Shown here: piece after piece, positions 7,597-57,352 of the stretch
Layout of the letters: the number at the start of each line of letters is the position of its first letter
How positions within the stretch are numbered: position 1 is the stretch's first letter
NCBI GenBank assembly: GCA_964570175.1
Contig: CAZMXG010000007.1
Coordinates: 2,109 to 66,108, forward strand
Direction of reading: 5' to 3'
Length of the DNA: 64,000 nt
Source: an uncultured Heliomicrobium sp.
Lineage (GTDB): Bacteria; Acidobacteriota; Blastocatellia; RBC074
Made by a program: the position numbers and the translations under genes
Notes under the pieces: model-generated
Told to the model about the DNA's origin: nothing
Databases searched by the model: none
What the model saw: the letters and a program-made list of their open reading frames with translations, nothing else

Positions 7597-9033
7597 ATGG
7601 TTAAAGAAAAAATTCTGATTGTTGATGACGACGTAAATATTCGATTCACCCTGCTTGAAGCGTTGCGCGGTTGGGGTTACGAAGCAATTGAAGCGGGCAC
7701 AATTGCTGCCGGGCGTGAGCTGTTTGACGCAGAATCGCCGCAAGTCGTTCTACAGGACGTCAATCTTCCCGACGGTTCGGGCATTGACGCATTGCAGGAA
7801 TATAAAAATCGCCAGCCCCAAGCCGTGGTGATTATGATCACCGGCAACGTTCAGCTTGAAGACACCATCGCGGCATTGCGCGGCGGCGCTTACGATTTCA
7901 TCAGCAAACCCGTCCGATTGAATGAACTGCAAGTCACAATTCGCAACGGCATAGAGGCCGGAAAATTGCGCAAGGAAGTCGTCAGCTTGCGGCGCGAACG
8001 CGCTCAACAATTCAGCTTTGACCAGATCATCGGACAATCGCCGGCAATGATGGAAACGATTCGGCTGGCGCGCAAAGTCGCCACCAGCGAAGCTTCGTCC
8101 GTTCTGTTGCAAGGCGCAAGTGGAACCGGCAAAGACATCATTGCCAAAGCCATACATTTTGGTTCATCCCGGGCAGATCAACCGTTTATTGCAATCAACT
8201 GCGCGGCAATTCCAGGCACCTTGCTGGAAAGCGAACTATTCGGCCACGAAAAAGGCGCATTCACGGACGCCAAGGTTCGCAAGGAAGGTTTGTTTGAGCA
8301 AGCGCAAGGCGGCACGTTGTTTCTGGATGAAATCGGAGAGCTTGAACTGGGGTTACAGGCAAAATTTTTACGGGTGCTGGAAGAAGGAAGGTTTCGCCGC
8401 GTTGGCGGATTGAAGGATTTGCCCCTGAACGTGCGTGTAATTGCAGCGTCGAATCGCGATTTGAAAACTGAAGGCGAAGCGGGCCACTTCAGAATAGATC
8501 TTTTCTACAGGCTTTCTGTCATTCAAATTGACCTGCCGCCGCTCAGCGAACGAGGCGACGATGTTTTACTGCTGGCCAATTACTACATCGCTCATTTCAA
8601 TGGACGTTTTCGGAAACAGGTGCGGGGATTGTCGCCGGAAGTGGAAGACATCTTTCGCCGATACGCCTGGCCTGGAAATGTTCGTGAACTACGCAACGTC
8701 ATTGAACGCGTGATGATTCTGGAAGATTCAGACAAGGTAACCACTGCCTGGCTTCCCCGCGATCTGATGAAAGGCAACGTTGAGAGAGCAAAAAATGAGG
8801 CCATTTCTTCTGCTGCCTTTGCGGCTCCCGTTCAGCCCGAAACGCCAAACCTCCCACACTTTATCCTTCCCGAAAAAGGAATTGAGCTGGAACAGGTAGA
8901 GCTGTCTTTTGTCAGACAGGCAATGGAACGCAGCGGCAGCAATCAAACTCGCGCGGCTGAGTTATTGGGAATCTCGCGGGATCAGCTTCGCTACCGATTG
9001 AAGAAAATCGAAGAATTCAGTTCGGCGGACTGA
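7597..9033 (+). CDS. Sigma-54-dependent response regulator (NtrC family: REC + AAA+ sigma54 activator + Fis-type HTH)
   Basis: REC domain (ILIVDDD...[12 protein letters not shown]). Walker [15 protein letters not shown] motif, [14 protein letters not shown]-terminal HTH ([21 protein letters not shown]). ATG at 7597 chosen over the upstream ORF start. Confidence 0.85.
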
Positions 9034-9034
9034 T

Positions 9035-9715
9035 TCAATTCTTGCCACTCGTTCCAAGCACAGAAAGAAAAGTCTTTACTCTGCCTGTTACATCAGGTTT
9101 GGTGAAAAAGTCGCTGATGTTGCCAAACGGATAAAGCGCCGAAATGACCGCGACACTGTCCGCTCCGGCGGCAATTACTTCAGCGGCACGTTCGACCGTG
9201 ATTCCTCCAATCGCCACCAGTGGACGATCCGTCAATGCTTTTGCCTGACGAACCAATTCCAGCCCAACAACCGGATCGGCGTTTTCCTTTGTTATGGTCT
9301 GAAAAACCGGGCCAACAGCAATGTAGTTTGCCGAAGTTTCCAGCGCCGCGTTGAACTGCTCCAACGAATGGGTAGAAACGCCGATGATTTTGTCTTCGCC
9401 CAAAATCTCACGGGCTTCTTCGACAGACAAATCTTCCTGCCCTAAATGAACGCCATCAGCTCCGGAAGTCAGCGCCACATCCACGCGGTCATTGATGATC
9501 AACCTGGCCCCAGCGGCTTGTGTTACGGCCCGACAGGTTCGTGCCGCGTCCAGCAATTCCTTGGCGCTGGCATCTTTGTCGCGCAACTGGATCAGCTCCG
9601 CTCCACCTGCCAACATCATTTGAACGATTTCTTCGTGCGTGCAATTGGATAACTGGCAATCCGTGATTGGATACAGTTTTGGGATTTGGAACATAAAAGG
9701 ATTATGTCCGATCAA
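9035..9715 (-). CDS. thiE: Thiamine-phosphate synthase
   Basis: LYPITD start, IQLRDKD, HLGQEDL, IIGVSTHS, IAVGPVFQT and IGGIT are characteristic ThiE/TMP-TENI motifs. 226 aa. Confidence 0.8.
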   Translation of the reverse strand: MIGHNPFMFQIPKLYPITDCQLSNCTHEEIVQMMLAGGAELIQLRDKDASAKELLDAARTCRAVTQAAGARLIINDRVDVALTSGADGVHLGQEDLSVEEAREILGEDKIIGVSTHSLEQFNAALETSANYIAVGPVFQTITKENADPVVGLELVRQAKALTDRPLVAIGGITVERAAEVIAAGADSVAVISALYPFGNISDFFTKPDVTGRVKTFLSVLGTSGKN

Positions 9716-9927
9716 TTCTTCTCTTCAAAGTCGGAAAGCGGCACAAATTTGCCGTTCGCCAATCGAAATGCAACGTGTATAATTTGCGCCGTTCTATGAC
9801 AGGATGCCGATGCGAGACGGAAGGTGTACTTGCTTCCGAGGCAACCCGACCTGAAACCAGCACTCCCCTTTGTTACAAACTGCAACTCACAATTGAAACC
9901 ACCTGAAACAGGTGAGGAGGAGGAATT

Positions 9928-10269
9928 ATGAAATCTCGTATTTTTGCTTCATCAGTATTATTTGCTGTGGCGCTTTTTTTGATGGCCTGCCCCAGTCAAA
10001 CCACAATCAATAAGCTAAATGGCGACCCGGAGCGGTATCGCGGCAAGGAAGTGATGATCGTTGGTACGGTCACGAACAGTTACGGTGCCGCAGGGTTCGG
10101 AGCTTACGAGCTAAGCGACGAAACTGGAAAGATATGGGTACTGACCAAACGCGGCACACCTAGTAAAGGCGCCAGAGTTGGCGCCGTTGGAAAATACATG
10201 CAGGGGGTAAACTGGGGCGGGCGTAATTTCGGCAGCTCCATTGAAGAGACTGACCGGAAAGTTCGATAA
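9928..10269 (+). CDS. Small lipoprotein (signal peptide with lipobox LMAC)
   Basis: MKSRIFASSVLFAVALFLMAC. Strong RBS GAGGAGG 6 bp upstream. 113 aa, Gly-rich beta protein. Confidence 0.4.
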   Translation: MKSRIFASSVLFAVALFLMACPSQTTINKLNGDPERYRGKEVMIVGTVTNSYGAAGFGAYELSDETGKIWVLTKRGTPSKGARVGAVGKYMQGVNWGGRNFGSSIEETDRKVR

Positions 10270-10291
10270 GCGGAAACAGTTTGAACAAAGT

Positions 10292-10340
10292 AAAAAGGGC
10301 GGCAAATGAAGATTAACCATCTCATTTGCCGCCCTTTTTA
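10292..10340. terminator. Bidirectional rho-independent terminator between convergent genes
   Basis: Perfect inverted repeat AAAAAGGGCGGCAAATGA / TCATTTGCCGCCCTTTTT flanked by A- and T-runs, between the + lipoprotein gene and the - 118-aa gene. Confidence 0.6.
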
Positions 10341-10347
10341 CTTTTGA

Positions 10348-10704
10348 TTAAGCCGCAGCGGCCACAGTCGCTTTTGGACGACCATGAATTTTAATAGTGT
10401 CGTAGTCTTCTGCTTCGACAGTAAATTCATAATTGCGGGCCGGTTGGTATTTGCCGATCATTTCGTTGAATTTCACAACCATCGGTTCGACAAAATCATG
10501 CATTAAAGCGCTTTCTTCAACGACTTTGTGCTGAACGTGGGCGACATCATCTTTGCTAATGCCCACATGATGCATCAAGCGGAGAGGCAAATCCTTTGCC
10601 TCTGAAATTCCGGTGTCAATGCAATAATCCTGGTTGCGAGCCTCTAGCTCCAAGAGCTGTTTATAGAATGTTTCATTGTTATTAAAAGCCAGGCTATTTT
10701 CCAT
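10348..10704 (-). CDS. Hypothetical protein (118 aa)
   Basis: ORF with a plausible RBS context. His-rich segment (LMHHVGISKDDVAHVQHKVV). No family recognised. Confidence 0.3.
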   Translation of the reverse strand: MENSLAFNNNETFYKQLLELEARNQDYCIDTGISEAKDLPLRLMHHVGISKDDVAHVQHKVVEESALMHDFVEPMVVKFNEMIGKYQPARNYEFTVEAEDYDTIKIHGRPKATVAAAA

Positions 10705-10912
10705 GATCTATCCTCCGTAAAACATTCAGCGCTGGTGCTGATGATTTTGATTTCGCTTTCCTTGGACAATCGTGCCAAAGAAAGCACGTTGAAGCATAAG
10801 CTTAGGTACGAAAGAACTGGAGAAAACACCGAATTAGTGCGCGGGGAAAATGAAATCTGACTTTTGCGTTGTTCGAGAAAAAAGGTAGTTCAGGCGGTTT
10901 GAAATGTCAATT

Positions 10913-11554: not shown

Positions 11555-12519
11555 TAGTTCGCTTTCAAATCCATACCTGAATACAAACTGGCGACTTGAT
11601 CGCCATAACCATTGAACATCAGCGTATCGCGCAAGCCGAATTCGCCGATTCGGCGCTCGGTCGCCTGTGTCCAGCGCGGATGCGAAACTCCAGGATTGAC
11701 GTTCGAGTAAAAGCCATATTCGTCCGGCCCAACTTCGCTCCAGGTGGAAGTCGGCTGGTCCTTAACCAGCAAAATCTTGACGATGGATTTGATGCTTTTG
11801 AATCCGTATTTCCAGGGCACCACCAACCGCAGAGGAGCGCCATTTTGCGGCAGCAGCATTTTGCCGTAAAGCCCAGCCGCCAGCAGCGTCAGTGGATGCA
11901 TTGCTTCATCCAAGCGTAAGCCTTCGACATATGGCCAAGGCAACACGTCGCGGCTTTGATTGGGCATTCGTTCCGGATCAAACAGCGTGATGAATTTGAC
12001 GAAACCCGCTTCGCCCATCGGTTCGACTTGTTTCAGCAATTCAGCCAGCGGAAAGCCCATCCACGGAATGACCATTGACCAGGCTTCAACGCAGCGAAAG
12101 CGGTAAACGCGATCTTCCAGCGGAGCAAGCTTCAGAAGGTCATCCAGGTCAAAAGTCTTCGGCTTGTGAACCATCCCGGCGACTTCCACCGTCCAGGGTC
12201 GAGTGACAAAGTTTCGGGCGCGGCGCGCAACGTCCTGTTTGCTGGTCGAAAATTCGTAGAAGTTGTTGTAATTCGTGATGTCTGCGAAATCTGTGGCTGA
12301 CTGGCCTTCGGGAGTGAAATAGCCCCCTTTGGCTTGCAGCGTAGCGGAATCAGGTTTGCGGGCTTCTCGTCCAGGCGTGTTCAGCGTTCTATAAAGCAAT
12401 CCGGTTGCCGTAGTTGTAGCTGCCAGAACCCCCGCGCGAATGAAGTTACGGCGATTCCAATACGTTTTCTCATCCGTTATTTCGCTGCTCTTTATTTCTT
12501 CTGAATTTTTGATCAGCAT
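11551..12519 (-). CDS. msrP: Protein-methionine-sulfoxide reductase catalytic subunit MsrP (YedY, molybdopterin sulfite-oxidase family)
   Basis: Tat signal [18 protein letters not shown]. Oxidoreductase molybdopterin-binding fold motifs. 322 aa. Confidence 0.8.
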
Positions 12520-23921: not shown

Positions 23922-24045
23922 AGTTTTGCCACAAAGATTTAAGCGCTGCCTTCAGGCGAATGGATTGACCCACAGAGTGTGCCTGAAGGCAGGCGTAAAC
24001 CGTATTCTTGCTCCCCTTGATCTTCCCCCAGAGGATCATTGCCCC

Positions 24046-24807
24046 ATGGCTGTAAAAAAAGAAGACTCACTATTGCTGGGTTCGCAGCAAGTTTCAAACA
24101 ACGAATCACCGGCGAATCCGGTAAGTCCCACAAAGAAAGCTGTGATCATTGATACCTGGCTCAGCCAGTTTGAGCAGCGTATCGCGCGGGATTTCCAGCG
24201 GCGCACGGGGCTGGATTACAAAACAACCATTGCCCAAATCATTGAAGCCGCTGAGCCGTTTCCCGGCATGCGCGTGCTGGATGCACCGACCGGAACGGGA
24301 ATTCTGGCCCGGCAGTTTGTGGGCAAAATTGGCCAGGATGGAAAGATTATCGGCGTTGATGAAACGCACGAAAAAGTCGAAGAAGCACGACTAGCTGCGC
24401 AATCAGCGAAAGCAAGCTCGAAAACTGAATGGCGCATGATGCCGCTTTCTCATCTCAAGTTTGATAACAACAGTTTTGATCTGGTCACGTCCGGAATGGC
24501 GTTTCATCGTTTGGACGGTGCGCGCTATTTGAAAGAGATTCATAGAGTCCTGGTTCCGGGTGGGCGACTGTTGATTGCGGATGAACTGGCGCCGAAAATC
24601 ACTCCTCACTCTTTGCTGCAATCGGTCAGGCGAAACTATTACCGTTATATTGCGCGGGATAACGCGGAAGCTGATGCGCATTTTCCTTCCAGCGAAGAAA
24701 TGACGCGAATGATGCATGAAGCTGGTTTCAGTCAGATTGTGTTTCGCGCTTTGCGCCAGCGCAGCAAATATGATCGCGTCTTCACATTGGTCAAAGCTGT
24801 AAAGTGA
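24046..24807 (+). CDS. Class I SAM-dependent methyltransferase (Methyltransf_11-like)
   Basis: VLDAPTGTGILARQFV is SAM-binding motif I, with VPGGRLLIAD downstream. ATG at 24046 preferred over the upstream ORF extension. Confidence 0.65.
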   Translation: MAVKKEDSLLLGSQQVSNNESPANPVSPTKKAVIIDTWLSQFEQRIARDFQRRTGLDYKTTIAQIIEAAEPFPGMRVLDAPTGTGILARQFVGKIGQDGKIIGVDETHEKVEEARLAAQSAKASSKTEWRMMPLSHLKFDNNSFDLVTSGMAFHRLDGARYLKEIHRVLVPGGRLLIADELAPKITPHSLLQSVRRNYYRYIARDNAEADAHFPSSEEMTRMMHEAGFSQIVFRALRQRSKYDRVFTLVKAVK

Positions 24808-24820
24808 TTGAGGTAAAAGC

Positions 24821-25738
24821 ATGAATCTGCAAAAAAAGGTAACGATTATCGGAGTGCTGATGGATTTGGGCGCTGATCGGCGAGGTGTTGATATGGGTCC
24901 TTCGGCAATTCGTGTCGCAGGCTTGAATGAGCGATTGGCAACGCTTGGTTACGAAGTCACGGACGCAGGCAATATCCTGGTTCGCAACCCTGAAATGCTG
25001 CCAATCAGCGACGGCAAAGCAAAGTATCTGCCTGAGATTGCTGCCGCTTGCCAAAAGCTTGCCGATCAAGTCGAAACTGCGCTGGAAACCGGTTCGACAC
25101 CGATTGTGTTGGGCGGCGATCATTCCATTGCTATCGGCAGTGTCGGCGGACTTTCGGCTTTTCATCATAAACAGGACAAGCGCGTTGGCGTAATTTGGTT
25201 TGACGCTCACGGTGACATGAACACTCCAGACACTTCTCCATCGGGAAACATTCACGGAATGCCCTTCGCGGCTATTTTGGGCAAAGGCGCAAAAGAATTG
25301 ACGAAAATCAGCGGCTTCGCGCCAAAAGTTTATCCCGAAGATTGTGTGCTGATCGGCGCGCGCAGCGTTGACCCCGACGAAGCCATCGCGCTGAAAGCGT
25401 CGGGCATTCGGGTTGTCACCATGCGCGAATTGGATGAACGCGGAATGAGCGCGGTAATGGATGAAGCAATGTGGCTGGCTTCGCGGAGGACTGCGGGTTT
25501 TCACGTTACGATGGATATGGATTTCGTGGATCCTGACTTCGCGCCCGGCGTTGGCACTCCGGTTCCGGGTGGCCCGACGTATCGCGAAAGCCACCTGGCA
25601 ATGGAAAAGGTCGCCGATTCGGGCAAGATGCTTTCGTTCGAGTTGACTGAAGTCAATCCGGTGCTGGATGTCTCAAACAAAACGGCTGAACTTGGCGTGC
25701 AACTAATCCTGTCGGCATTCGGCAAAAAAATTATGTGA
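24821..25738 (+). CDS. Arginase/agmatinase/formiminoglutamase (ureohydrolase) family protein, arginase-like
   Basis: Mn-binding motifs [35 protein letters not shown]. 305 aa. Confidence 0.75.
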
Positions 25739-25850
25739 TCCGGGTACGCATTGCTTCCAGCGTGCGAGACTTGGCGGTTCGTCTATTGCTTCCGAAGGCG
25801 CGATTTGCCGAGATGCGCGCTGGAAGCTGCGTGCACCCAGAGGAGACGGT

Positions 25851-26960
25851 TTGGAAAACAAGCTTAGGGTTGGAGTCATTTTCGGAGGGCGTTCGGGCGA
25901 ACACGAAGTTTCGTTGCGCTCAGCGGAATCCATCATCAACGCGCTGGACCGCGAAAAATACGAAGTTGTGCCGATTGCCATCACCAAAGCGGGCAAGTGG
26001 CTGGCTTCCAGCGAAGCAACAAACTTACTGCCCAGCGCGGTGATGACAAGCGCCGACCAGCACGTGGCCATCTTTGGTGATCCGACTGAAAAAGGCTTGG
26101 CGCGCTTCGATGGCCAAAACGAAACTGGCAAGCGCGATACACTGGACGTGATCTTTCCTGTGCTGCATGGAACGTATGGCGAAGACGGCACAATTCAGGG
26201 TTTGTTGGAAATGGCCGATGTGCCGTATGTCGGTTGCGGCGTTCTGGGCTCAGCCGCCGGAATGGACAAAGTGGTCATGAAGCGGCTGTTTCGCGAAGCC
26301 GGGTTGCCCATCGTCGAATTCGTTCACTTTCTGCGTTCACAATGGGAAGCCGATCCTCTATTGGTTGAATTGCGCGTGGCTGAAGAAATCGGATTTCCCT
26401 GCTTCGTCAAACCCGCCAACCTGGGTTCTTCGGTCGGAATTTCTAAAGCGACGGATGCCAAAAGCTTGAATGCAGCAATTGCCCTTGCCGCAAAATATGA
26501 CCGCAAAATTGTCGTTGAACGCGGCGTGGATGCGCGCGAAATTGAAGTTAGTGTTCTGGGTAACGATCAGCCACAAGCCAGCCTGCCCGGAGAAATCGTG
26601 CCGCAATCCGCCGATTTTTACGATTACCAGGCGAAATACATCAGCGCCGATGGTGCGCGATTGGAAATTCCCGCGAACCTGAGCGAAGCGCAAACAGCCG
26701 AAATTCAGCAATTGGCGGTTCGGGCATTCCAGGCGATTGACGGTTCAGGACTAGGCCGCGTAGATTTTTTCCTCGAAAAAGAAACCGGCAAGTTGCTGTT
26801 GAATGAAATTAACACCATGCCCGGTTTCACTTCGATCAGCATGTACCCAAAACTGTGGGAAGCCAGCGGACTTAATTATGGCCAGTTGATTGACCGGTTG
26901 ATTGAACTCGCCTTTGAACGTCACCGCGAAAAATCACGCAATGTGACCAGCTTCGGCTGA
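25851..26960 (+). CDS. ddl: D-alanine--D-alanine ligase
   Basis: [20 protein letters not shown]-terminus. ATP-grasp motifs ([24 protein letters not shown]). 369 aa. Confidence 0.85.
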
Positions 26961-26981
26961 GCTTTGGGGCGAGCAAGTTGG

Positions 26982-27020
26982 AAAAAGAAAAGGCGGCATT
27001 GAATGCCGCCTTTTCTTTTT
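26982..27020. terminator. Bidirectional rho-independent terminator
   Basis: AAAAGAAAAGGCGGCATTGAATGCCGCCTTTTCTTTT is a perfect hairpin flanked by A/T runs, between convergent ddl and the FecR-like gene. Confidence 0.6.
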
Positions 27021-27036
27021 GATTTCCGGTTCAAAC

Positions 27037-29118
27037 CTAGTTGCTGGGTTTGATCGGGCGTGGTGGTGGCGCTTCGCGCGAAGGTGGCGAAGATGGTTTG
27101 TCCGGCGCACGTTCGCTTCTGGATGGAGCCGATTCACGCGACGGCGGCGGCGACGAAGGCCGTTCCGGCGCGCGTTCGCTTCTGGACGGAGCCGATTCTC
27201 GCGAAGGCGGCGGCGATGAAGGCCGTTCAACCGGACGCGATGGTGGCGGATCGTACCGTCGCGGAGCTTCACTGCGCGAAGGCGGTTCGCTTTGCCGAGG
27301 CGTTTCGATGCGTGACGGACGATCCGCATCGCGGTTCACTTCGCGGTTTGGTGTCGAACGCGGCGTATCAACAGAATCGCGTGACGGATTGCTGCGCTCG
27401 CTTTCCGGCAAACTGCGCGTAGGAGCCGGAATACGGTCAACAGTTCTGTATTCGCTTTCACGCGGTTGACGGTCAGGGCGAACGATCTGCCCATCCTGAA
27501 TCCGGCTTGGCGATGCAGAATTACCGTCTGCGTTGCGAATCGGAGCGCTTCGATCCGGCGACACAGTCCCCCGACCATCACGAGATGGAAGCCCGCCGAC
27601 TTCTGCTCTGCCCGGAACACCCGTGCGATCCAATCCCGGCACCGGGCGGCGTTCAATCACAGGAGCTTCCAGCCGACGAGCAATTTCAGTTCGTTCGACT
27701 TTCAGTTCGCGCGTCGGCGCAGCCTGCACAGGTTTGAACTCTTCGCCGCGCAACATAGTCGGCGTAGAGGGATCTGCTGGCTGACCACCTCCGCGAGGCG
27801 GAGCAGGCGGCAAAATAATTTCATTTGGCGCTTTGATGTCATTTTGCGTGACGATCACTCGCCCGTTATCGAACTTGCGGCCATCCATGACGCTGACTCC
27901 GCCTGGAGCATTGTAATTATCCAGCGAACGCGCATTGATGATGGTCGTGTTGTTGACGATTGTGGTGGAACCTCGGCCGCCGTAATACCTGTCGCGCGGG
28001 CCCAATGGACACCAGCCGTACCAACCATATCGCCCGTCGCGATACCCGTCACGATAGCCCTGGTTGTAACCGCTGCCCCAGCCAAAAAACGCGACTTGAT
28101 GCGGTGCCCAGCCCCAGCCCACTGAAACGGTCGGCACCCAGCACCAACGGCTGCGATACCAGGCCCAGCGCCCGTAATGATAGGGAACCCATCCCCAAGG
28201 TTCGTACGAAACCCAGGTCCAGCCCCAGCCGGAATAGTGCCGCCAGTAACCGGCTCGGTAAGGTGCCCAGCCAACGGCTACGCTACGAGGCGACCAGACC
28301 CAACCGTAATCAGGGGATTCATACCATTCACCGTAAGCGTCCAGATCATAAACGCCAGGAACGGCCACAGGAATGTAACGCGCACTGCGGGAATTTTCGG
28401 CCCGCGAAGACAGATCATCATCGCGGCGGTCATTCCAACGATCCCAATCGTCTTTGTCATCCAGCCGTGCAATCTGGAAGTAATTGGCATCTCGCCCATC
28501 AACAACAATACGGCGGCCTTGTTTAACCGTCACTGCGCCAATATCACGGTTGTAAACTTCAGCCTGTCCGCGCCGGACGATCACTTCGGTGGTTCCGTCA
28601 TCCTGCACATTGATGCGGTAGCTGCCTTCTTTCAAAAACGTGACGGCGACAATCGGCGTATCGACTTCAAAATAGACCGGATCGTTTTTTCCCAGATCGT
28701 TCGCGTCAACAACACTGAATTGACGCCGATCCAAGCTGTCTACGCGAAACGTCGCATTTCCGACTGGCAAGGCAAATTGAATTGTTCCGTTGTTGAATTG
28801 TGAAAACCGCAGATTGGAATTGCGGTCAATGCGGATCAGATTGCGTCCGCTAATTTGAATTTCAGCTCGACCGCCTGGGCCGCTATAAATCTGGTCACGT
28901 TCATTTAGTGGCAGATTCAAAGAAGCGTCATACCAGTTTTGGCCATCGCCGGTGCGCTGATAACTGACTTCACCTTCAATCAAGCTGATGCGGGCAACAC
29001 GTACAGCCTGGTCTTGCGCGACAACCAGCGTGAACAGGGAGGTCAGGAAACCGATCAAAAGTGCCGCACGCATCAGGCGGCGGCTTGCAAGCAATTCTGA
29101 AGCAGTGGGAAAGAGCAT
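27037..29118 (-). CDS. Secreted FecR-domain-like protein with Trp/Tyr/Gly-rich central region and Pro/Ser-rich repetitive C-terminal tail
   Basis: Signal or anchor helix. N-terminal [13 protein letters not shown]...[19 protein letters not shown] is FecR-like. Central segment dense in W/Y/G ([50 protein letters not shown]). About 250-aa low-complexity P/S/R/E tail ending in two 21-aa repeats. Confidence 0.5.
27100..27230. repeat. Coding tandem repeat, 63-bp unit x2, encoding [18 protein letters not shown](E/D)(R/K)P
   Basis: Near-identical 63-nt units begin at about 27102 and 27165 on the + strand, inside the 3' end of the 27037..29118 gene. Confidence 0.7.
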
Positions 29119-29464
29119 CTTTTTCCTCCGCGCAAAATCGAGGTCTTTCGCCGAAACCTCGACAGTTTGTTTTCAATCTCTTCGGAAGATCGTTTGGGGT
29201 GAGCCGTTGTAACAGCAAGACTTATGCCTTGTTTTTGCCTTTTTGAGAAGCTGCTCTACCAATAATTTCAATCACTTCGGTGATAAGTTTATAACTGCGG
29301 GAAGGATTCTATACTAAATCGGTTAGCAGGACTGTATTTAGCTGACGGTTTCGTATAGCGCGAAACTTGAGAAAACGGTTGAACTTCAGGCTGAGCCGCG
29401 CTGATGGGAAAACTGGCCCAACCTGAAATTGAAAAATTCGCAGCAACCGGCAGATTCCCTGCCC

Positions 29465-30706
29465 TTATTTGATCGCCACGGTTACCGGATTGGCTTTTTG
29501 ATCATCCACCATCATCTGTACAGCGACTTCGCCAACACCACTTAATCGCCTGGGCAAACGCAGATTGATTTGATCCAAGCCGCTGAAGTCCGGCTGCGCG
29601 CCAACATAAACGACTTCTGCAATCAGATCGTTAATTCTGGCCTCGACCAGGGATGGATCGGCGTGCCGCAATCCCGTGCCGAATACGATCAGAAAAACTT
29701 GATCGGTTGGCGGGCCAAGATCAATTTCCGCCGGGACAAACTTGTTTTGCGCTGGATCAAAGCGCACAGCCGGTTCATAAGTTTGTGAACCATCGGCCTT
29801 GATCCGCAAAACAGCCGCAGCCGGAACCCCCTGTCCGTTGGCATTGGCTGTGAACAATCCGGGCGCAATCGTCAGAAGCTGAGTACGCTCCATTGCCACA
29901 TTTCCCAATGAATTGACGACCCTGACAGTCGCCAGTCCCGTCTCAACTCCCAAAGGAACCTGATAATTGACTTGGCCGGGAGAAACAAAAAACAGCGGCG
30001 CAAGCGATTCTCTCCCTGCCTCGTCTGTGATTCTCACCGTTGTTCCTGCCAGGGAAGTTGGCAACGGCAAGGTTTTGGCGATTTCCGTTGCCGTCGCCAG
30101 GTCATTGCCAAATGCCGTCACAATTGATTCATTGGCCAAGCCAGCACGTTGGTAATCTGCCGCGGAAACACTTGCCACAGAATTGCCGCAAACGGGCGGC
30201 GGGACTTCTTTGACCAGCCGCGATCCCCACGGACACCATTGATTGCCGGGAAGAAAGTGTCCGCCCGCTTCGTCCAGAAAGCTTTCCGTATACGCAATAC
30301 TTGCGTCGCAGACTTCAATCGCAGAAGCGAAAAATTCTATAGTTTGCGGATCCAGGTGATAACTCCACGGCGGGTTGTAACAAGCCGCTTCTTTGATGAT
30401 CTTTCCGGCGACATGCGGCATAGATTGATCTTTGCCGTTGATGATGTCGCGCGCTTTTTGGATTTTGACCGGATCGGTCAGTTTAATGGTGAACGTTTCT
30501 TTTCGCGGCTGGATGTCAATTAGGAAGTAAGCTTCTTCAGCAATGACATTCTGCCGCAAAGTTGAATTCAGTTTTGATGAGAGCACCTCTTTGCCTGACG
30601 ATGGCGCAATTACGCCCCACAACAGCGCCAGACACATCACAAACAGAGCAATGGATCGAATCTGTATTTTGAGTCTATTCATCATGTACTTCTCCTGATT
30701 CGTCAT
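29465..30706 (-). CDS. Secreted protein with Acidobacteria-type C-terminal domain (Soli_cterm-like), paralog of 3953..5212
   Basis: Signal peptide. C-terminal VTAFGNDLATATEIAKTLPLPTSLAGTTVRITDEAGRESLAPLFFVSPGQVNYQVPLG aligns with the C-terminus of the 3953..5212 protein. The N-terminal 200 aa is unrelated. Confidence 0.45.
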   Translation of the reverse strand: MTNQEKYMMNRLKIQIRSIALFVMCLALLWGVIAPSSGKEVLSSKLNSTLRQNVIAEEAYFLIDIQPRKETFTIKLTDPVKIQKARDIINGKDQSMPHVAGKIIKEAACYNPPWSYHLDPQTIEFFASAIEVCDASIAYTESFLDEAGGHFLPGNQWCPWGSRLVKEVPPPVCGNSVASVSAADYQRAGLANESIVTAFGNDLATATEIAKTLPLPTSLAGTTVRITDEAGRESLAPLFFVSPGQVNYQVPLGVETGLATVRVVNSLGNVAMERTQLLTIAPGLFTANANGQGVPAAAVLRIKADGSQTYEPAVRFDPAQNKFVPAEIDLGPPTDQVFLIVFGTGLRHADPSLVEARINDLIAEVVYVGAQPDFSGLDQINLRLPRRLSGVGEVAVQMMVDDQKANPVTVAIK

Positions 30707-30977
30707 CGAAGCAAAAGCGATGGTCAGACTCTCACTGACTACTGGGGAATGCTTATCCTTGCCTCGAATGCTTTAGCTTCACCGCTTTATTTTCGTGACC
30801 TGTAAACCCCATCAGTGCGGCTTCCGATGTTGGCAGGCGATTCCAGGCTGCTCTGCTGTGTATTTCCAAAGAGCAGTTTGAAGCCTTTCCTTCGATCTTT
30901 TGCCATCAACATCCAACACGATTGATCTTTGCCGCAAAAGTTTGATGGCCGCAACACGATGTGATTGGCGCTTATGT

Positions 30978-31922
30978 TCAATGTGTAAGCTTCCCGACAA
31001 AAGCCGTTAAATCCGCCGCAAATCGTTCTGGTTCTTCCCAGTGAGGCGCATGCCCTGTGCCGGAATAAACCAAAAGCGTTGTTCCTTTGATCGCCGTTGT
31101 CAGAACGTCTTGATCCTTCCGGGAACAAAACAAATCCTGATCGCCCCAAACAATCTGCGTCGGCAATTTGATGTGACTGAATTCCGATGAAAAATCCGTT
31201 TCCATCAATCCCGCTATCACAGAACGCCAGACACGCGCGGGAACTTTTGCACTCTCTTGCACGGCAGCATCCAGAAACCTCGCAGGGATGGGTTTATGCA
31301 AGGTGCTCTGTTGAAACTCCCGCACAAACTTGAAATCAACCGGGTCAGCCATTTTGCTGATTGTCGTATCCCACAGCTCTTTTACTCCCGCGTGGCCGTG
31401 AACCGTTTTGAACGCCCCAACCAGCAATAATCCCGATGCGCGTTCGGGATGATCCAGCACGAACCGCAGCGCAATCTGACTGCCCATCGAATGCCCGACA
31501 ATTGCCGCACGCTTCAGTTTCAGCGCGTCCATAAACGCCACCACGTCGGCTGAAAAATCGCTTGGGCGATAACCGGACGCTGGACGTTCGGAATCCCCAT
31601 GTCCACGTTGCGACAATGCGAACGCATGAATGTTTTTTGGCAAATGCGGCAGCACCAGTTCAAACGACCGCCATGAATCCGTGTATCCGTGCAGTAGGAT
31701 TACCGGAATGCCTGTCGCATCACCCTGCTCGACATATTGCAGCTTCACCCCTGTGCGAAGCGTGACGGATTTGACCGAAGGCTCCTTTCGGTCCTTGAAG
31801 GCTTTGGCTAATCGAATGCTGCCGGTTTCAGGCAACATAGGTTTCTGTTGTGCCGATACGCCAGAAACCAGCAGTAGCAAAACATAGGTAACGACAAATC
31901 TGATTTTCATAGGTTTCCTCAC
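30978..31922 (-). CDS. Secreted alpha/beta hydrolase
   Basis: Signal peptide. HGYTDSW (HGxxxS oxyanion region), nucleophile elbow GHSMGS, and a C-terminal His region. Confidence 0.7.
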   Translation of the reverse strand: MRKPMKIRFVVTYVLLLLVSGVSAQQKPMLPETGSIRLAKAFKDRKEPSVKSVTLRTGVKLQYVEQGDATGIPVILLHGYTDSWRSFELVLPHLPKNIHAFALSQRGHGDSERPASGYRPSDFSADVVAFMDALKLKRAAIVGHSMGSQIALRFVLDHPERASGLLLVGAFKTVHGHAGVKELWDTTISKMADPVDFKFVREFQQSTLHKPIPARFLDAAVQESAKVPARVWRSVIAGLMETDFSSEFSHIKLPTQIVWGDQDLFCSRKDQDVLTTAIKGTTLLVYSGTGHAPHWEEPERFAADLTAFVGKLTH

Positions 31923-32052: not shown

Positions 32053-32619
32053 TTATGGTTTTGGCCTTGGCACTGGCCTGACCACAATCCGCTCTTTTTT
32101 CTTCAAGCCATCTTTGATGTCCTCAAAATCGGGCCGAGGTTTCGGAGTTGGAGCAGGTGCCGCTTGATTGGGCAACGGATTGAAGCTTGCCTGCTTGCGA
32201 ATCCCAATGGAAGATCGCGTTCCGTTATGAACAACCCGGACGATCAGGCTAACATCCGCCGAAACACGTGACGGGCCGCCAAACATCTTTTCGCGAGCTT
32301 CGTTCGATATGCCCAGCAAGCCAACTGAAACCGAACTGCTGTTTGGATTTGGCGTTTGCACCACTTTTCCTGTTTGCCCGTTCCCGCTCAATGAAACATT
32401 CAGTTCATACCCTTCGATTCTGGCGCCGGGTTTTAGACCCGTCAGTGACCAGCTCACCTTCAGAAAACTCGGTGGGCTTTTCGCCCCGACAACCGAAATC
32501 TCTGTCAAACTGAATTTGGTATCGAATCCCTGAGCTGATAACCCGGCGGGAAAGCTATCGGCGACCATGATTACCGCCAGCAAAACTATCGCTTTTGAAA
32601 CAAATTTCTTGTGAATCAT
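32053..32619 (-). CDS. Hypothetical secreted protein (Ig/FN3-like beta-rich, Pro/Lys-rich C-terminus)
   Basis: Start set at MIHKKFVSKAIVLLAVIMV (signal peptide). No catalytic motifs. Confidence 0.3.
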   Translation of the reverse strand: MIHKKFVSKAIVLLAVIMVADSFPAGLSAQGFDTKFSLTEISVVGAKSPPSFLKVSWSLTGLKPGARIEGYELNVSLSGNGQTGKVVQTPNPNSSSVSVGLLGISNEAREKMFGGPSRVSADVSLIVRVVHNGTRSSIGIRKQASFNPLPNQAAPAPTPKPRPDFEDIKDGLKKKERIVVRPVPRPKP

Positions 32620-32659
32620 TCTTGAATCCTCCTTCTGCCTTGTTGAATACAGCCGCCAG

Positions 32660-33754
32660 TTACTGCTTCTTCGCAATGTAATAGTTGTTGATGATGTCGT
32701 GCGGAAGCCGTTTCACTTCGACATTTGCAAATCCGGCATCTGCCAACATTTGCTGCGCCAGTTCTTCCCCCCAAGCCGCGCCCAGACCAGCGCCCCCCTG
32801 TGCCAGCGAAACCGTCATGCAGTGCAGGCAGGAAACTGTGTACGTAAACGTTCCCAGCGGATTTTCCAGGTTTTTGTGAACGTGGCTTGAACCGCCAATG
32901 TCCTGCATCAGAAACACACCGTCTTCGTTCAACGCACCGAGAATTGCTTTCAACACCTTTGCCGGATTCGCCTGATCGTGAATCGCGTCAAACGCTGTAA
33001 TCAGGTCAAACCGAAGCTTGCCGCCGATTTCCGCAACATCTTTCATTTCAAAACTGATATTGGTCAGGCACTTTTGCTCCACTTCCAGATTTGCGGCGGC
33101 GATGGCTTCTTCTGAAAAGTCGTAACCCGTGAAGCTGCTGTTAGGGAATTTCGCTGCCATTTGAATCAATGCTTTGCCGCGCCCACAACCGACATCCAGG
33201 ACTTCAATTCCGTTGCGGAGTTTTTCCGTCAACCCCGACACTAGCGGCAAAATGTGATCAAATAATCCGGAAATGACTGTTTGCGCGCTTTCTTCAGCCA
33301 TCACTTCGTGGAAGCGCGGATAGGCTGAATACGGCACGCCGCCGCCGTTGCGGAAACATTCTATGATTTGATCTTCGACGCCAGCCAGAACCGGAATGAA
33401 TTGCGACGTGACCGCCAGGTTATTCGGCGAAGCCGCGCGCGTCAGAAAGGTTGCGTGTTCGGCTGGAAGCCGATATGTCGCGGTCGCATTGTCGTATTCG
33501 ACGATTCGCCCGGTCGCCATTGCTCCCAACCATTCGCGCACGTACCGTTCCTTCAAATTGGCGGCTGCGGCAATTTCCAAGCTTGTGGCAGGCGGCAACG
33601 TGCTCATTGCATCAAACAATCCTGTGCGATGTCCGATGCTGGTCATCAACGCCAGAGCCGCGTTGTTCAGCACGCCAACCATTTGTGCGGCAAATTGTTC
33701 CGCTCTTGCTTCATTTAAAGTTGCCTTCGCAGGCAAAGTTCCTGTTTGTGACAT
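32660..33754 (-). CDS. Class I SAM-dependent methyltransferase with N-terminal winged-helix/dimerisation domain (Rv2258c-like)
   Basis: [15 protein letters not shown] is motif I. DFSEEAI and [11 protein letters not shown] are post-I motifs. A 150-aa N-terminal helical domain precedes them. RBS GGAG upstream of the ATG at 33754. Confidence 0.65.
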
Positions 33755-34357: not shown

Positions 34358-36589
34358 ATGTCTTTGTCTGGCAAACACTTTTACGATTTTGACCGGTTTC
34401 GTATGGATGCGAACGAGCGCGTGCTGTTGGCCGACGGCGAGATCGTGACGCTGACGCAAAAAGCATTTGACGTGTTGATGGTTTTGGTGGAACGGCGCGG
34501 CCAGATTGTCAGCAAGGACGAACTAATGGAGTTAGTTTGGCCAGACACGTTTGTCGAAGAGGGGAATCTTGCCCAGAACATTTACACCCTTAGAAAAGTT
34601 CTGGGACAGACCAGCGACGGGCAGGATTTCATTAAAACGATTCCCAAACGAGGGTACAGGTTTGCTTTGGACGTCAGCGAACACCGTGATGTTCAGCCAG
34701 AGCTGACCTCTGAAAAGCCAACCGTTTTGAACTCGCCCTCAAAACCGCTGACAACAAATTCCGTAGTGGTTCAGTTTCCCACGGAACATCGCGGAATAGT
34801 TCATCAACCCACGCAGGAAAATTGGACCCAATCGCTAAGCCGTCACAAAATGTTGGTCGTGACGCTGGCTGTGCTTTTTGTCGGGTCGGTCGGCAGTTTG
34901 ATTTGGCTGGGAAACTCTTTTGGATGGAATCTGTTTTCGTCGAATTCCAGCACCAAACTGAATATCAGCAATTTGACGACGACTGGAAACGTCGCGTGTT
35001 CGGCGGTTTCTCCGGATGGAAAGTTTGTCGCTTATGCGCTGACCGAAACCGCTCAGCGAAGCAGTTTGTGGTTAATGCAATTGGCGACGATGAATGTTCA
35101 ACAGGTGATCGCTCCGGCCGAAATCCAATACCACGCGCTGACGTTTTCGCGCGATGGACAGTTCATTCATTACGTCGCCCGTGAAAATAATTCAACTCGC
35201 ACGCTGTTTCGAGTTTCGGTGCTTGGCGGCGCTTCAAAAAAATTGAGTGAAAATGTCCTGACCGCCATTTCGTTTTCTCCTGACGGCGAACGGCTCGCTT
35301 TCCGGCGATCATTTGACGAACGGCGCGAGGCTGTTCTTTTTGTCGCTAATGCTGACGGCAGCAATGAAAAACAGCTTGCTGCCGTCAAATATCCGAATTC
35401 GTTTGGCGATCCTGCCTGGTCGCCCGACGGAAACGTGATTGCCTGTGCCGCAGGCTATTCGGAAGGAGGCGCGAATATGGAAGTTGTCGCCGTTCGCGCA
35501 GATGACGGAGCGATCAAGCCGGCTTCGGCTCAAAGATTCCGCTGGATTGGCCAGCTTGCGTGGCTGCCGGATTCCAGCGGTTTGATGATGGTCGCCAGCC
35601 GCGATCCGGCAGAGCTTCGGCAGGTTTGGCGGCTGGATTATGCAACCGGCGAAACGCGCCGTGTGACCAATGACAACAACCATTACAACCGCTTGAGCCT
35701 TTCCGCTGACGGCAAGACGTTGGTGGTTTCGCAGCTCAAGCAGGTTACCAACATGTGGATGATCCCGCGTGAAGACGCGCAGCGTGCGAAGCAAATCACC
35801 TTCGGCGCGGGAGGCTACAGAGGCAGGCTTTCGTGGACGCCAGATGACAGAATTGTGTATGACTCCGAAGCGGCTAACGCCGCAACGATTTCCGTGATGA
35901 ATGCCGATGGCAGCCATCAGAAACAATTGCTTGGCGAACAACCCAATAAATCTTACGCTGGGCGCTCGTATGTTTCGCCAGATGGACGCTATGTTTTGTT
36001 CGCCTCCGATGTCACTGGAACACGCCACATCTGGCGCATGAACATAGATGGCAGCAATCCAGTTCAACTGACCAATGGTGATGGCGAAGACACGCCGCAT
36101 TGTTCCCAGGATTGCCGATGGGTGGTTTACACAAAACTCGAACGCAAGGGAGCAGATCGTCCCACAATTTGGCGTGTTTCCATTGATGGAGGAACGCCAT
36201 CGCAATTGACCGAAGATTTTACGATGTATCCGGCGATTTCGCCGGATGGAAAGATGATGGCTTGCGTGCGCTCAGCGCCGAACGAACCCGGACGGCTTGC
36301 CATTTACTCAGTTGAAGGCGGTGTGCCAATCAAAATTTTCCCGCGCCCGATAGATGGCACGCCGCTGATTCGCTGGACGCCCGATGGGCGATTTTTGACC
36401 TATGACGAAAATCCAATCGGTCCCGCCAAATTGTGGCTTCAATCCGTGGAGGGCGGCGAACCGAAATTGCTGACCGAATTCGTTTCGGATCGCATTTTCG
36501 GATTCGACTGGTCGCCTGATGGAAACCGATTGGCTGTCGTACGCGGCCTGTGGTCGGCCAACCTTGTCTTGATCAAAGGCTTTCAGTAA
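34358..36589 (+). CDS. CadC/OmpR-type winged-helix DNA-binding domain - TM - TolB-like beta-propeller transcriptional regulator
   Basis: N-terminal trans_reg_C-like domain (LTQKAFDVLMVLVERRGQIVSKDELMELVWPDTFVEEGNLAQNIYTLRKVL). One TM (VVTLAVLFVGSVGSLIWL). About 500 aa of repeated SPDG/WSPDG propeller blades. Confidence 0.65.
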   Translation: MSLSGKHFYDFDRFRMDANERVLLADGEIVTLTQKAFDVLMVLVERRGQIVSKDELMELVWPDTFVEEGNLAQNIYTLRKVLGQTSDGQDFIKTIPKRGYRFALDVSEHRDVQPELTSEKPTVLNSPSKPLTTNSVVVQFPTEHRGIVHQPTQENWTQSLSRHKMLVVTLAVLFVGSVGSLIWLGNSFGWNLFSSNSSTKLNISNLTTTGNVACSAVSPDGKFVAYALTETAQRSSLWLMQLATMNVQQVIAPAEIQYHALTFSRDGQFIHYVARENNSTRTLFRVSVLGGASKKLSENVLTAISFSPDGERLAFRRSFDERREAVLFVANADGSNEKQLAAVKYPNSFGDPAWSPDGNVIACAAGYSEGGANMEVVAVRADDGAIKPASAQRFRWIGQLAWLPDSSGLMMVASRDPAELRQVWRLDYATGETRRVTNDNNHYNRLSLSADGKTLVVSQLKQVTNMWMIPREDAQRAKQITFGAGGYRGRLSWTPDDRIVYDSEAANAATISVMNADGSHQKQLLGEQPNKSYAGRSYVSPDGRYVLFASDVTGTRHIWRMNIDGSNPVQLTNGDGEDTPHCSQDCRWVVYTKLERKGADRPTIWRVSIDGGTPSQLTEDFTMYPAISPDGKMMACVRSAPNEPGRLAIYSVEGGVPIKIFPRPIDGTPLIRWTPDGRFLTYDENPIGPAKLWLQSVEGGEPKLLTEFVSDRIFGFDWSPDGNRLAVVRGLWSANLVLIKGFQ

Positions 36590-55585: not shown

Positions 55586-56173
55586 ATGTTCTGTCCGAAA
55601 TGCGGGTCGAACCAGGGTGATGGCAAAAAGTTTTGCACAGTTTGCGGAACCAACTTGCTCATCGTTTCGCAGGCTTTGACAGGACAACTTGCTCCGCCGC
55701 AACCTGCATTTCACCATTTGCCACCCGCTGCCATCTTCAATAGGGAAATGGAGCGCCAGAAAGAAATGCGCTCCGGAATTACGATGGCGGTGCTAGGCGG
55801 CAGCTATCTTGTTTATCAAATCATCAATTTTATTTTTTCCGCGCCCTTTAATGGCTGGCGTTCCCCATTTGGCTTTGGCAGCTTCATTGCATTCATTGTT
55901 TGCGCAGTTGGCATTTCCAAAATTATTAGCGCGCGAGTGATTGCCGATGCGCCCTCAACGACATCCGGCTTATCCAGCGCGATGTATCCGGCGACGGAAC
56001 CCGGTCAATCACCGCTTCCATCTCCGAGCGTGTCGGCTCAGGCAGCCCTGCCCAAACCGGTTTTTTCTGCTGCCCCTCCGATGCATCCGTCTGCTCCACA
56101 TACCAATGAGCTTGATCCCGTTCAAACAACAGTAAGCGTGACGGAAGAAGAAACGAAACACTTGGGTCGCTAA
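55586..56173 (+). CDS. Zinc-ribbon membrane protein (paralog 1)
   Basis: [24 protein letters not shown] zinc ribbon. Two predicted TM helices. Pro/Ser-rich C-terminus. Confidence 0.5.
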
Positions 56174-56189
56174 ATCCAACACCAGTTCG

Positions 56190-56807
56190 GTGAAAAGGAG
56201 AACTATGTTTTGCCCAAATTGTGGAACGGAAACCCGCGAAGCGATCAAGTTTTGTAAAAAGTGCGGGACGAATTTAAAGCGGGTGCAAGGCGTGATGAGC
56301 AAAGGCGGGGCCGGGTCCAGCGCCAACCAGTCAGCCGACTGGAACCAGTGGTGGATCGAAGAGCATCAGGAAAAGCGAGAACAAAACAAGAAGAAACTGC
56401 CCGAAGAAAAACGGCTGGAAGAAATTAAAACCGGTGTCATTACCGCCAGTGTCGGCCTGGCAATATCTATTTTCCTGAATCTTTTTTTCGAAGCCATCGC
56501 CAATGCTTCAGGCGGCCCTGAAGCAATCATCCTGCAACGCATCTGGGCAGTCGGATTGATCCCGCTTTTCATTGGGCTGGCCTTTGTTTTCAATGGCCTG
56601 TTCATCAGCAAACGCATTGTTGAATTGAAAAAGCAGCATCAAGATAATATGCCGCAACCGATGTTTGCGCCGGTTCCCAATACTTCGCCGGTTGCGCAAT
56701 TGAACGAAGCGGATCAACCCCAGCTTGCTGATTACAGCATTACCGAACCGACAACGACCAGGCTGCGCGAGCCCGTGCCCGTTTCATCGCCACGCGACAC
56801 GAACTGA
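56190..56807 (+). CDS. Zinc-ribbon membrane protein (paralog 2)
   Basis: MFCPNCGTETREAIKFCKKCGTNL. Charged linker. Two TM helices. Confidence 0.5.
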   Translation: MKRRTMFCPNCGTETREAIKFCKKCGTNLKRVQGVMSKGGAGSSANQSADWNQWWIEEHQEKREQNKKKLPEEKRLEEIKTGVITASVGLAISIFLNLFFEAIANASGGPEAIILQRIWAVGLIPLFIGLAFVFNGLFISKRIVELKKQHQDNMPQPMFAPVPNTSPVAQLNEADQPQLADYSITEPTTTRLREPVPVSSPRDTN

Positions 56808-56854
56808 TAAAGTTGTAAAACTGAAATCATAGAATCCCCAGGAGGACACTGTTA

Positions 56855-57352
56855 ATGTTTTGCACCCGATGTGGTACTCAAAACCCCGATGATGCAGGTT
56901 TTTGCCGCAACTGTTCCAGTCCGCTGACGCGCCCTGTTAGCCACTCAGGGCAACAGACTGCTCCGCAATCGAACCAACCAACATCAGGCTCTTATGCCAA
57001 TCCATCTTCATCGCAATCCCCCTATCCGGGTTATCAGGGACCGCCTGTGTACCAAAGTTCATATGCCAATCAACCGATAACGCAACAAAGCGGTGCCAGC
57101 GGACGCGCAATCGCCTCCATGGTTTTAAGTATTCTTGGCTTGGTGATGTGCGGTTTCTTGACCAGTATTCCAGCGATGATTTTGGGCAAGATGGAACTGA
57201 ACGACATCAAATTGGGCAAAGCTCCCAAAGCGGGTGAAACACTGGCCAAAATTGGATTTTATGTTGGAATCGCCGGAACCGTAATTTCTTGTCTCGCTGG
57301 TATTGCGGGCGCTGCCTTGTGGATTATCGGCGCGGCCAATTCATTCAATTGA
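56855..57352 (+). CDS. Zinc-ribbon protein with C-terminal DUF4190-like two-TM domain (paralog 3)
   Basis: MFCTRCGTQNPDDAGFCRNCSSPL. Q/S/P/Y-rich linker. IASMVLSILGLVMCGFLTSIPAMILGKMELNDIKLGKAPKAGETLAKIGFYVGIAG is DUF4190-like. Confidence 0.55.
   Translation: MFCTRCGTQNPDDAGFCRNCSSPLTRPVSHSGQQTAPQSNQPTSGSYANPSSSQSPYPGYQGPPVYQSSYANQPITQQSGASGRAIASMVLSILGLVMCGFLTSIPAMILGKMELNDIKLGKAPKAGETLAKIGFYVGIAGTVISCLAGIAGAALWIIGAANSFN

Follow-up and report, generated by a model that had tools for sequence, protein, structure and literature searches.

The literature on FecR domain and FecR family proteins that we found comprises only classical anti-sigma work and one entry of a Legionella secretome, and matches to BcpO proved to be unrelated. 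The closest described relatives of the protein analysed here are the FecR/PupR anti-sigma regulators, with which it has one domain in common, and the DUF6600 proteins catalogued in Pfam. The gene lies on the minus strand at positions 27037 to 29118 of a 64-kb stretch of contig CAZMXG010000007.1 (64,000 nucleotides (nt), called the window below). The original prediction had described its product as a secreted FecR-like protein with a Trp-rich core and a repetitive tail, and the list of open reading frames (ORFs) contains a 693-residue ORF with exactly the same coordinates. It is a genuine, monocistronic gene that encodes a cell-envelope protein of a soil Acidobacterium of the Blastocatellia type. 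An independent Logan assembly (L001, run SRR14932609) is 100% identical to the window from 24008 to 31837, the coding sequence (CDS) included. Three features are newly described: the Trp-rich core, which is predicted to consist of three 27-residue beta-hairpin repeats, the tail, which is net cationic almost throughout the family, and the promoter, which appears to be of the sigma-54 type. The coordinates of all features are listed in Table 1.

Architecture and conservation of the protein

Both domains guessed in the original prediction were recovered by a Pfam search. FecR (PF04773) was matched at residues 75-186 (E 2.6e-8) and DUF6600 (PF20245) at residues 258-375 (E 2e-21; 76.5 bits for a cut-off of 27; profile positions 3-101 of 102). 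No further Pfam domain was detected in the 693 residues, even at an E value of 10 on sub-regions, and NCBIfam gave no family match. The family is very large. A word-indexed search returned at least 3,850 homologues of the same architecture, of which the best 120 are Blastocatellia/Acidobacteria proteins of 640-770 residues apart from a few partial ones, nearly all with FecR and DUF6600 and a few with DUF6600 only. Orthologues at 53-99% identity are found in Blastocatellia metagenome-assembled genomes (MAGs). An exhaustive HMMER search with residues 245-385 yielded 9,108 cluster representatives at 50% identity (E <=1e-3), 3,647 of them with E <=1e-10, and in most of 150 representatives the DUF6600 domain starts at about residue 210-250. 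A genome scan located family members in Acidobacteriota (Bryobacterales, Terriglobia, Pyrinomonadaceae), Gemmatimonadota, Verrucomicrobiia, one Spirochaetia MAG and Beta-/Gammaproteobacteria (Pandoraea, Sulfuricella, Frateuria, Dyella, Lysobacteraceae); all these lineages are diderm. The tails are free of domains, and no extra domain was present in 10 of the longest or atypical members.

The Trp-rich peptide quoted in the original prediction lies at residues 272-329, and its exceptional Trp density was borne out. Residues 258-375 (118 residues) contain 19 Trp (16%), 15 Tyr and 19 Gly; against the 1.25% Trp found in the window's 56 other long ORFs, this corresponds to a binomial P of about 9e-16, and none of these ORFs exceeds 8 Trp per 118 residues. 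The domain comprises repeat units of about 27 residues (256-284, 285-311 and 312-340) with the motif YGxW-x5-GWxWxP, which resemble one another in profile-profile comparison (E 2e-5 to 7e-4). In an AlphaFold2 model built with 105 orthologues, they are predicted to form hairpins at residues 263-277, 290-304 and 317-328, followed by strands at 342-347 and 366-371. The W-x-W pattern in each hairpin should place the Trp side chains on one face of the sheet. Most Trp, Gly and Pro positions of the block are invariant in the 105 orthologues and in 134 distant relatives, and the core kept in both alignments includes W265, G272, W275, P277, W284 and H314-Y-G-R-W318, so that the block is clearly conserved. 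The suggestion of a beta-solenoid found no support, since the model consists of beta-hairpins with a 27-residue period and a PDB comparison with the model of the domain alone brought up no structural neighbour, not even a solenoid. A catalytic dyad of Cys and His (H314/C326) was considered and rejected; the His is invariant, and the Cys is less than 90% conserved in the distant alignment. The second most Trp-dense ORF of the window (8 Trp per 118 residues), at 51-1448 on the plus strand, encodes a 465-residue protein in which a Cys-rich, zinc-ribbon-like N-terminus is fused to an FGE-sulfatase (formylglycine-generating enzyme-like) domain.

The N-terminus reads as a cleavable Sec-type signal peptide, and the protein is probably exported, soluble, not a lipoprotein and without an anchor. 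This fits the earlier description as secreted: a basic n-region is followed by hydrophobic residues 14-33, V-V-A|Q occupies the -3/-1 cleavage positions, and 34-40 residues precede the first domain. In the model the helix at residues 14-33 runs directly into the first strand of the FecR-like domain. Family members are alike, with an AxA site followed at once by a conserved first strand, DPPxRVxRL. The signal peptide contains no lipobox Cys, a hydropathy scan found no transmembrane segment after it, and Pfam detected no sorting motif (PEP-CTERM, type IX secretion system (T9SS) C-terminal domain, autotransporter). Close orthologues have a twin Arg; Tat export was not adopted, as distant members have ordinary Sec-type n-regions. 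The family profile matched two FecR-type PDB entries by sequence (E 5.9e-5 and 1.7e-4), in agreement with Foldseek, and in the same search it gave no match for the DUF6600 region; a PDB sequence search with the single protein returned chance matches only. In the linker between the two domains D223, W228 and R232 are invariant alignment columns. The extension that follows DUF6600 has no Pfam match; N401, P405-G407 and F416 are conserved there, and an alpha/beta piece is modelled at residues 400-425, with a predicted local distance difference test score (pLDDT) of about 86-90 for residues 400-430.

The low-complexity C-terminus of some 250 residues noted in the original prediction is confirmed as a tail of 20% Pro, 17% Arg, 14% Ser and 9% Glu (P about 5e-18 for the Pro enrichment). 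Its net charge is +10 and its isoelectric point about 11; the charge of the folded head is near neutral. The tail belongs to no Pfam family, and a pLDDT below 50 for nearly all of residues 493-682 indicates disorder. Two islands are conserved. P463 is invariant in the first, and R481 and R490 are nearly so; residues 451-470 are modelled with a short strand and a helix (pLDDT 72-79) and may dock on the folded head. In the second, E561, R562 and P566 are conserved at 90% or more. Among 104 full-length family representatives, the tail is net positive in 103 (median +13.5), its median length is 272 residues with a median of 17.6% Pro and 13.7% Arg, 14% of its residues are hydrophobic, and Pro reaches at least 10% in 91. 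Tail sequence is not conserved and composition varies, from Pro/Ala/Gln tails to the collagen-like GxP repeats of Pandoraea. As positive charge and Pro are shared across the family while sequence is free, this points to selection on charge and extension and not on sequence. In Pandoraea commovens (L080, 5668-8472) the tail is far longer and has collagen-like GxP triplets (GVPGQPGVPGAPGHAGVPGQPGVPGTPGVPGEPGYPG) ahead of a stretch rich in Gln, Pro and Arg; lineages can differ freely in the composition of the tail.

Near its end the tail contains a tandem repeat, reported by Tandem Repeats Finder as 2.0 copies of a 63-bp period at 27101-27228 (92% matches); a degenerate third unit follows the two 21-residue units. 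The units had been called perfect, which is correct for the protein; the DNA units are identical at 58 of 63 positions, and in a codon-by-codon comparison the five differences are all synonymous third-codon changes, with no non-synonymous one. An assembly artefact, which had been raised as a possibility, is not borne out: the units can be told apart in DNA, the independent assembly is identical, and the same pair of units is present in orthologues (85-99% identity) recovered from other samples. Variation between strains had also been predicted, as a change in repeat number. The seven members of the 90%-identity cluster have lengths of 693, 694, 694, 696, 699, 700 and 708 residues, and the differences do concentrate in the repeat tract, as in-frame indels of 4 (ERAP), 6 and 7 residues (12-21 nt in DNA). 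These are smaller than a unit, and the two units of about 21 residues are retained in all seven strains. Indels of 1-4 residues also occur elsewhere in the tail and at the C-terminus, and the folded parts are almost invariant.

We consider it very improbable that this repeat is a contingency (hypervariable) locus, in which the copy number would change rapidly and so diversify the protein among strains. In favour are the simple, GC-rich sequence and the length differences of near-identical strains within the tract. However, near-identical units and a copy number that differs between close strains, the feature of such loci, were not found. The synonymous divergence of 8% between the units argues against a fast slippage locus and for an old duplication whose peptide is under purifying selection, both units persist down to 85% identity, and the indels are always in frame. 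The repeat tract, of low complexity, evolves slowly under purifying selection, and the end of the tail changes by small in-frame duplications and deletions. In a more distant orthologue (P0006; L002, about 11950-12106) both 21-residue units read SRDS where both units of the window (27103-27228) read SRES, which hints at concerted evolution within lineages by gene conversion or re-duplication.

Upstream region and locus

The gap 5' of the gene spans 346 nt. The window was scanned with GGCAYNNNNNTTGCW, following the sigma-54 consensus TGGCAC-N5-TTGCW with the exact GG-N10-GC spacing. The element upstream of the gene is the sole match on both strands, where 1.33 are expected by chance, so that the count alone is not significant. 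The sigma-54 call is made because of the position, orientation and conservation of the element. The upstream block is conserved in an alignment of the upstream regions of orthologues at 58-99% amino acid identity from six Blastocatellia loci. Across the family, we scanned the sense strand of the 450 nt upstream of the gene in 79 loci. At least 10 of the 12 consensus positions were matched in 20 loci (0.025 expected per region, about 2 in all) and at least 11 in eight (0.002 expected per region), and all Pyrinomonadaceae and Blastocatellaceae loci among the 79 have a match. The gene thus appears to be read from a sigma-54 promoter. Sigma-54 regulons have been argued to be enriched for functions of the cell exterior (PMC3162934).

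A simple sigma-70 scan upstream of the gene gave nothing useful. The conserved leader block directly before the gene showed no convincing conserved RNA fold and no Rfam family, and an RNA element in the 346-nt region was rejected, RNAalifold giving -4 kcal/mol and Rfam only terminator-like noise. Further conserved blocks, ACGAAACCGTCAG... and CTAACCGATTTAGTATAGAATCC, lie at about 29270-29345 on the minus strand and could be activator or integration host factor (IHF) sites.

In five Terriglobia loci, a histidine kinase gene (HisKA and HATPase_c) and a gene for an NtrC-type activator (REC, Sigma54_activat and HTH_8) adjoin the DUF6600 gene on the same strand. These pairs may encode the cognate regulators of the DUF6600 gene; their adjacency is notable solely for its consistent orientation and orthology.

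Downstream, the ddl gene is convergent with the studied gene and has a bidirectional hairpin terminator in common with it, for which the weak Rfam matches are all terminator-like hairpins. According to precomputed gene calls, the syntenic loci L001 and L007-L010 encode ddl, arginase, methyltransferases, an AsnS/AspS-type synthetase, a BP74_N secreted protein and a hydrolase; no extracytoplasmic function (ECF) sigma factor or TonB-dependent receptor is among them. None is conserved in the further orthologue loci either, the sole exception being one convergent ECF sigma gene. Linkage to ddl is kept only in relatives at or above about 85% identity and is lost below. The upstream neighbour (29465-30706, minus strand) encodes a secreted BP74_N-domain protein of 413 residues, and at 32053-32676 (minus strand) lies a gene for a secreted 207-residue protein without Pfam match that has a short Pro/Lys/Arg-rich C-terminal tail (PAPTPKPRPD...RPVPRPKP).

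Table 1. Features of the studied gene, its product and related loci (window positions unless a locus is named; aa, amino acid residues)
Feature	Position	Strand	Basis or remark
Complete CDS, exported FecR-like/DUF6600 protein, 693 aa, ATG start	27037..29118	minus	ORF list
Predicted signal peptide, aa 1-34: n-region with RR, hydrophobic core aa 14-33, VVA|QD cleavage site	29017..29118	minus	hydropathy scan, AlphaFold2
FecR-like beta-sandwich, aa 41-218	28465..28998	minus	AlphaFold2, confident (pLDDT 90-97)
Conserved acidic/basic linker, aa 219-255, with long charged helix aa 224-241	28354..28464	minus	AlphaFold2 secondary structure
DUF6600 Trp/Tyr/Gly-rich domain, aa 256-375	27994..28353	minus	three predicted beta-hairpin repeats and two further strands
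Conserved small alpha/beta extension, aa 376-440	27799..27993	minus	pLDDT, conservation
Disordered Pro/Arg/Ser/Glu tail, aa 441-693 (253 residues)	27040..27798	minus	pLDDT, composition
Conserved tail island 1, aa 453-492	27643..27762	minus	conservation profile
Conserved tail island 2, aa 538-575	27394..27507	minus	alignments
Tandem 63-bp/21-aa unit 1, aa 631-651	27166-27228	minus	Tandem Repeats Finder
Tandem 63-bp/21-aa unit 2, aa 652-672	27103-27165	minus	Tandem Repeats Finder
Bidirectional intrinsic terminator: A-tract, GGCGGCAT-TC-AATGCCGCC hairpin, T-tract	26981..27020	both	read from sequence
Conserved leader block CTCGATTTTGCGCGGAGG, Shine-Dalgarno GGAGG 7-11 nt before ATG	29125..29142	minus	nearly invariant in five orthologous upstream regions
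Sigma-54 (RpoN) type -24/-12 element GGCATAAGTCTTGCT (GG-N10-GC)	29214..29228	minus	96-110 nt upstream of ATG
-24/-12 block GGCATAAGTTTTGCT	L002		
-24/-12 block GGCACGATGCTTGCT	L003		
-24/-12 block GGCATAAAGCTTGCT	L004		
-24/-12 block GGCACAAATCTTGCT	L005		
Histidine kinase and NtrC-type pair	L023 3069-5744; L086 2754-5454; L067, L081, L087 about 7964-10830		before or after DUF6600 gene

Possible functions

We tentatively favour, with somewhat less than even confidence, a sigma-54-regulated protein that binds or tethers components of the cell envelope. Such a protein would be made on demand under an enhancer-binding activator and exported to the envelope, where the folded head would dock on a target that may be protein, glycan or membrane. 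The FecR-like sandwich would mediate contacts with proteins, and the hairpin sheet, lined with Trp, Tyr and Arg, would bind a glycan, a membrane interface or a proline-rich peptide through stacking or cation-pi contacts. The cationic, proline-stiffened tail would serve as a flexible tether that binds electrostatically to anionic envelope polymers, candidate ligands being phospholipid or lipopolysaccharide (LPS) head groups, peptidoglycan and acidic exopolysaccharide. In this way, the protein would hold envelope layers together or arrange them, and sigma-factor signalling would not be its role.

Several points weigh against this proposal. The sigma-54 element, though conserved, is a consensus match, and it lies upstream of only about a quarter of the family genes, mainly in Acidobacteriota. 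Adjacency of the kinase/activator pair in five of 79 loci is near the chance level for any activator within 12 kb. When 699 ORFs from the 79 loci were clustered and recurrence was counted over 72 loci, no neighbour cluster occurred in more than 10, so that no operon partner points to a pathway. The exposed Trp face is an assumption drawn only from the W-x-W strand pattern, and the compartment may be either the periplasm or the cell surface. Finally, a literature search on DUF6600/PF20245 and on the YXWGXW/WXXGXW motif found no relevant paper, and we found no experiment and no characterised homologue for the family.

Elsewhere, the FecR fold is known to occur in regulators of cell-surface signalling, and the protein could be a divergent signalling component, not a structural one: a periplasmic sensor or co-sensor whose FecR-like head perceives an envelope signal and relays it to an unlinked regulator, either an ECF sigma/anti-sigma pair or a kinase/NtrC-type pair as in some Terriglobia. 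We regard this as unlikely. The five same-strand kinase/activator pairs and the convergent ECF sigma gene of one orthologue locus agree with it, but a regulated target beside its regulator would explain the adjacency equally well, and partner genes are absent from the locus of the window and from most of the 72 loci. Moreover, the protein lacks an anti-sigma domain, an STN-like subdomain and any transmembrane segment beyond the signal peptide, and a disordered cationic tail of 250 residues is without precedent in such sensors. Another improbable alternative is that the protein is a self-assembling matrix, the aromatic hairpin domain of one copy binding the Pro/Arg-rich tail of others, so that copies joined head to tail would build up a network or gel, either periplasmic or surrounding the cell. 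The contacts would be of the polyproline-II and cation-pi type, as in WW, SH3, GYF and CPAP G-box domains. An invariant Trp/Tyr-rich domain and a Pro/Arg-rich tail of free sequence co-occur family-wide, the first tail island, modelled with moderate confidence, may pack on the head, and the full model gave weak Foldseek matches to CPAP G-box/TCP domains, which bind proline-rich motifs (E 0.026-0.23, probability <=0.15). Searches for fold or sequence similarity to proline-recognition modules (WW, SH3, GYF, G-box) gave nothing significant.

It is also doubtful that the protein is an adhesin released from the cell, for example by type II secretion, whose cationic tail attaches it to extracellular DNA, to acidic polysaccharide or to the surfaces of minerals or soil. 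A signal peptide without an anchor and a polycationic tail would suit this role, the organism is a soil Acidobacterium, and a neighbouring gene also codes for a secreted protein. In Legionella pneumophila, a 'FecR domain-containing protein' (08005) is a type II-dependent exoprotein, enriched 8.3-fold in wild-type relative to lspF-mutant supernatants (PMC12239567); the likeness is one of annotation name only. If 08005 does belong to the family, it would provide the first experimental localisation for it. No secretion-system gene is nearby, no neighbour is conserved, and the sorting motifs searched for with Pfam are absent.

Envelope binding or tethering remains our preferred reading. Taken alone, the locus is ordinary and adds a further member to a family already catalogued in Pfam, and the interest is higher for the family as a whole. 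The value of the locus is that of an entry point to a family of more than 9,000 clusters at 50% identity in several diderm phyla, which has no solved structure and no predicted function. The new handles on this family are the 27-residue Trp-rich hairpin repeat, the conserved net positive charge of the tail and, for its acidobacterial members, the sigma-54 promoter. If the family turns out to be an envelope scaffold or tether, models of the Gram-negative envelope of soil bacteria would gain a component. A bolder proposal, to which we give only a small chance, is that DUF6600 adopts a fold not seen before, a 'tryptophan ladder' sheet of three hairpins that recognises polyproline/arginine-rich chains or glycan strands and that, with its obligatory polycationic tail, would constitute a widespread sigma-54-inducible, self-associating envelope scaffold or gel of diderms. 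Model organisms such as E. coli may lack DUF6600 proteins, a candidate reason for such a scaffold having been overlooked.

Other genes of the window and comparison with described systems

Elsewhere in the window, four consecutive small genes occupy 55586-57855 (plus strand). Three encode an N-terminal zinc ribbon (MFCPxCG...) followed by membrane-type domains of unknown function (DUF6249, DUF4190), and the fourth encodes DUF2752; in L003 and L004, similar zinc-ribbon and DUF4190 genes are found close to the orthologues of the studied gene. At 34358-36589 (plus strand), a 743-residue protein combines an N-terminal OmpR-type winged helix (Trans_reg_C) with PD40/WD40-like beta-propeller repeats, an unusual one-component regulator architecture, which the syntenic loci L008 and L009 have kept. 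The minus-strand gene at 60816-63935 encodes a 1,039-residue protein of the polymorphic-toxin type, with 13 RHS repeats and a PT-HINT pretoxin domain; its C-terminal toxin and immunity gene would sit at or beyond 60816.

The studied protein has the FecR beta-sandwich (PF04773) in common with the FecR/PupR anti-sigma regulators (PupR C-terminal domain, PDB 6ovk/6ovm; BDI_1681, PDB 4m0h), and the sandwich corresponds to the juxtamembrane subdomain of their periplasmic domain. Unlike these regulators, it has neither a cytoplasmic anti-sigma domain nor a transmembrane helix. Only about 40 residues precede the FecR-like domain, and no anti-sigma or DUF4880 match was found by Pfam. An STN/FecR_C subdomain was not matched either, sub-regions included, and the position of the STN-like subdomain is taken by a helix and DUF6600. 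In contrast to FecIRA, no fecI- or fecA-type gene is a neighbour in the syntenic loci, and none recurs across the 72 related loci. These absences, together with that of any recurrent neighbour, agree with the original prediction that this is not a classical FecIR unit. The protein lacks three of the four defining features of FecR/PupR regulators; it shares a domain with them, not a system, and for this reason should not be called an anti-sigma factor.

Other described proteins offer partial likenesses. The 'cell surface anchoring domain' (Region I) of the Marinomonas primoryensis ice-binding adhesin (PDB 5ix9) is only 16-19% identical to the studied protein and belongs to a giant repeats-in-toxin (RTX) protein of type I secretion without a Trp-rich domain or a cationic tail. 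TonB has an N-terminal membrane helix as anchor, a Glu-Pro/Lys-Pro spacer that spans the periplasm and a folded C-terminal domain. Its spacer and the studied tail are both long, charged, proline-rich, extended segments of envelope proteins, and the spacer is a plausible analogy for the way the tail may work; the order is reversed, however, and the studied tail ends free. The DUF6600 hairpins can also be set beside the aromatic beta-hairpin repeat modules of MORN, RHS/YD and choline-binding repeats, WW domains and the CPAP G-box. The closest likeness is to the Pfam DUF6600 proteins, which have the same signal peptide, FecR-like domain, DUF6600 domain and low-complexity tail. What sets the Blastocatellia/Pyrinomonadaceae branch apart from other branches of that family is its Pro/Arg/Ser/Glu tail, its 21-residue duplication and its sigma-54 promoter. 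Nothing essential differs, and the protein is a standard member of the very large, uncharacterised DUF6600 family.

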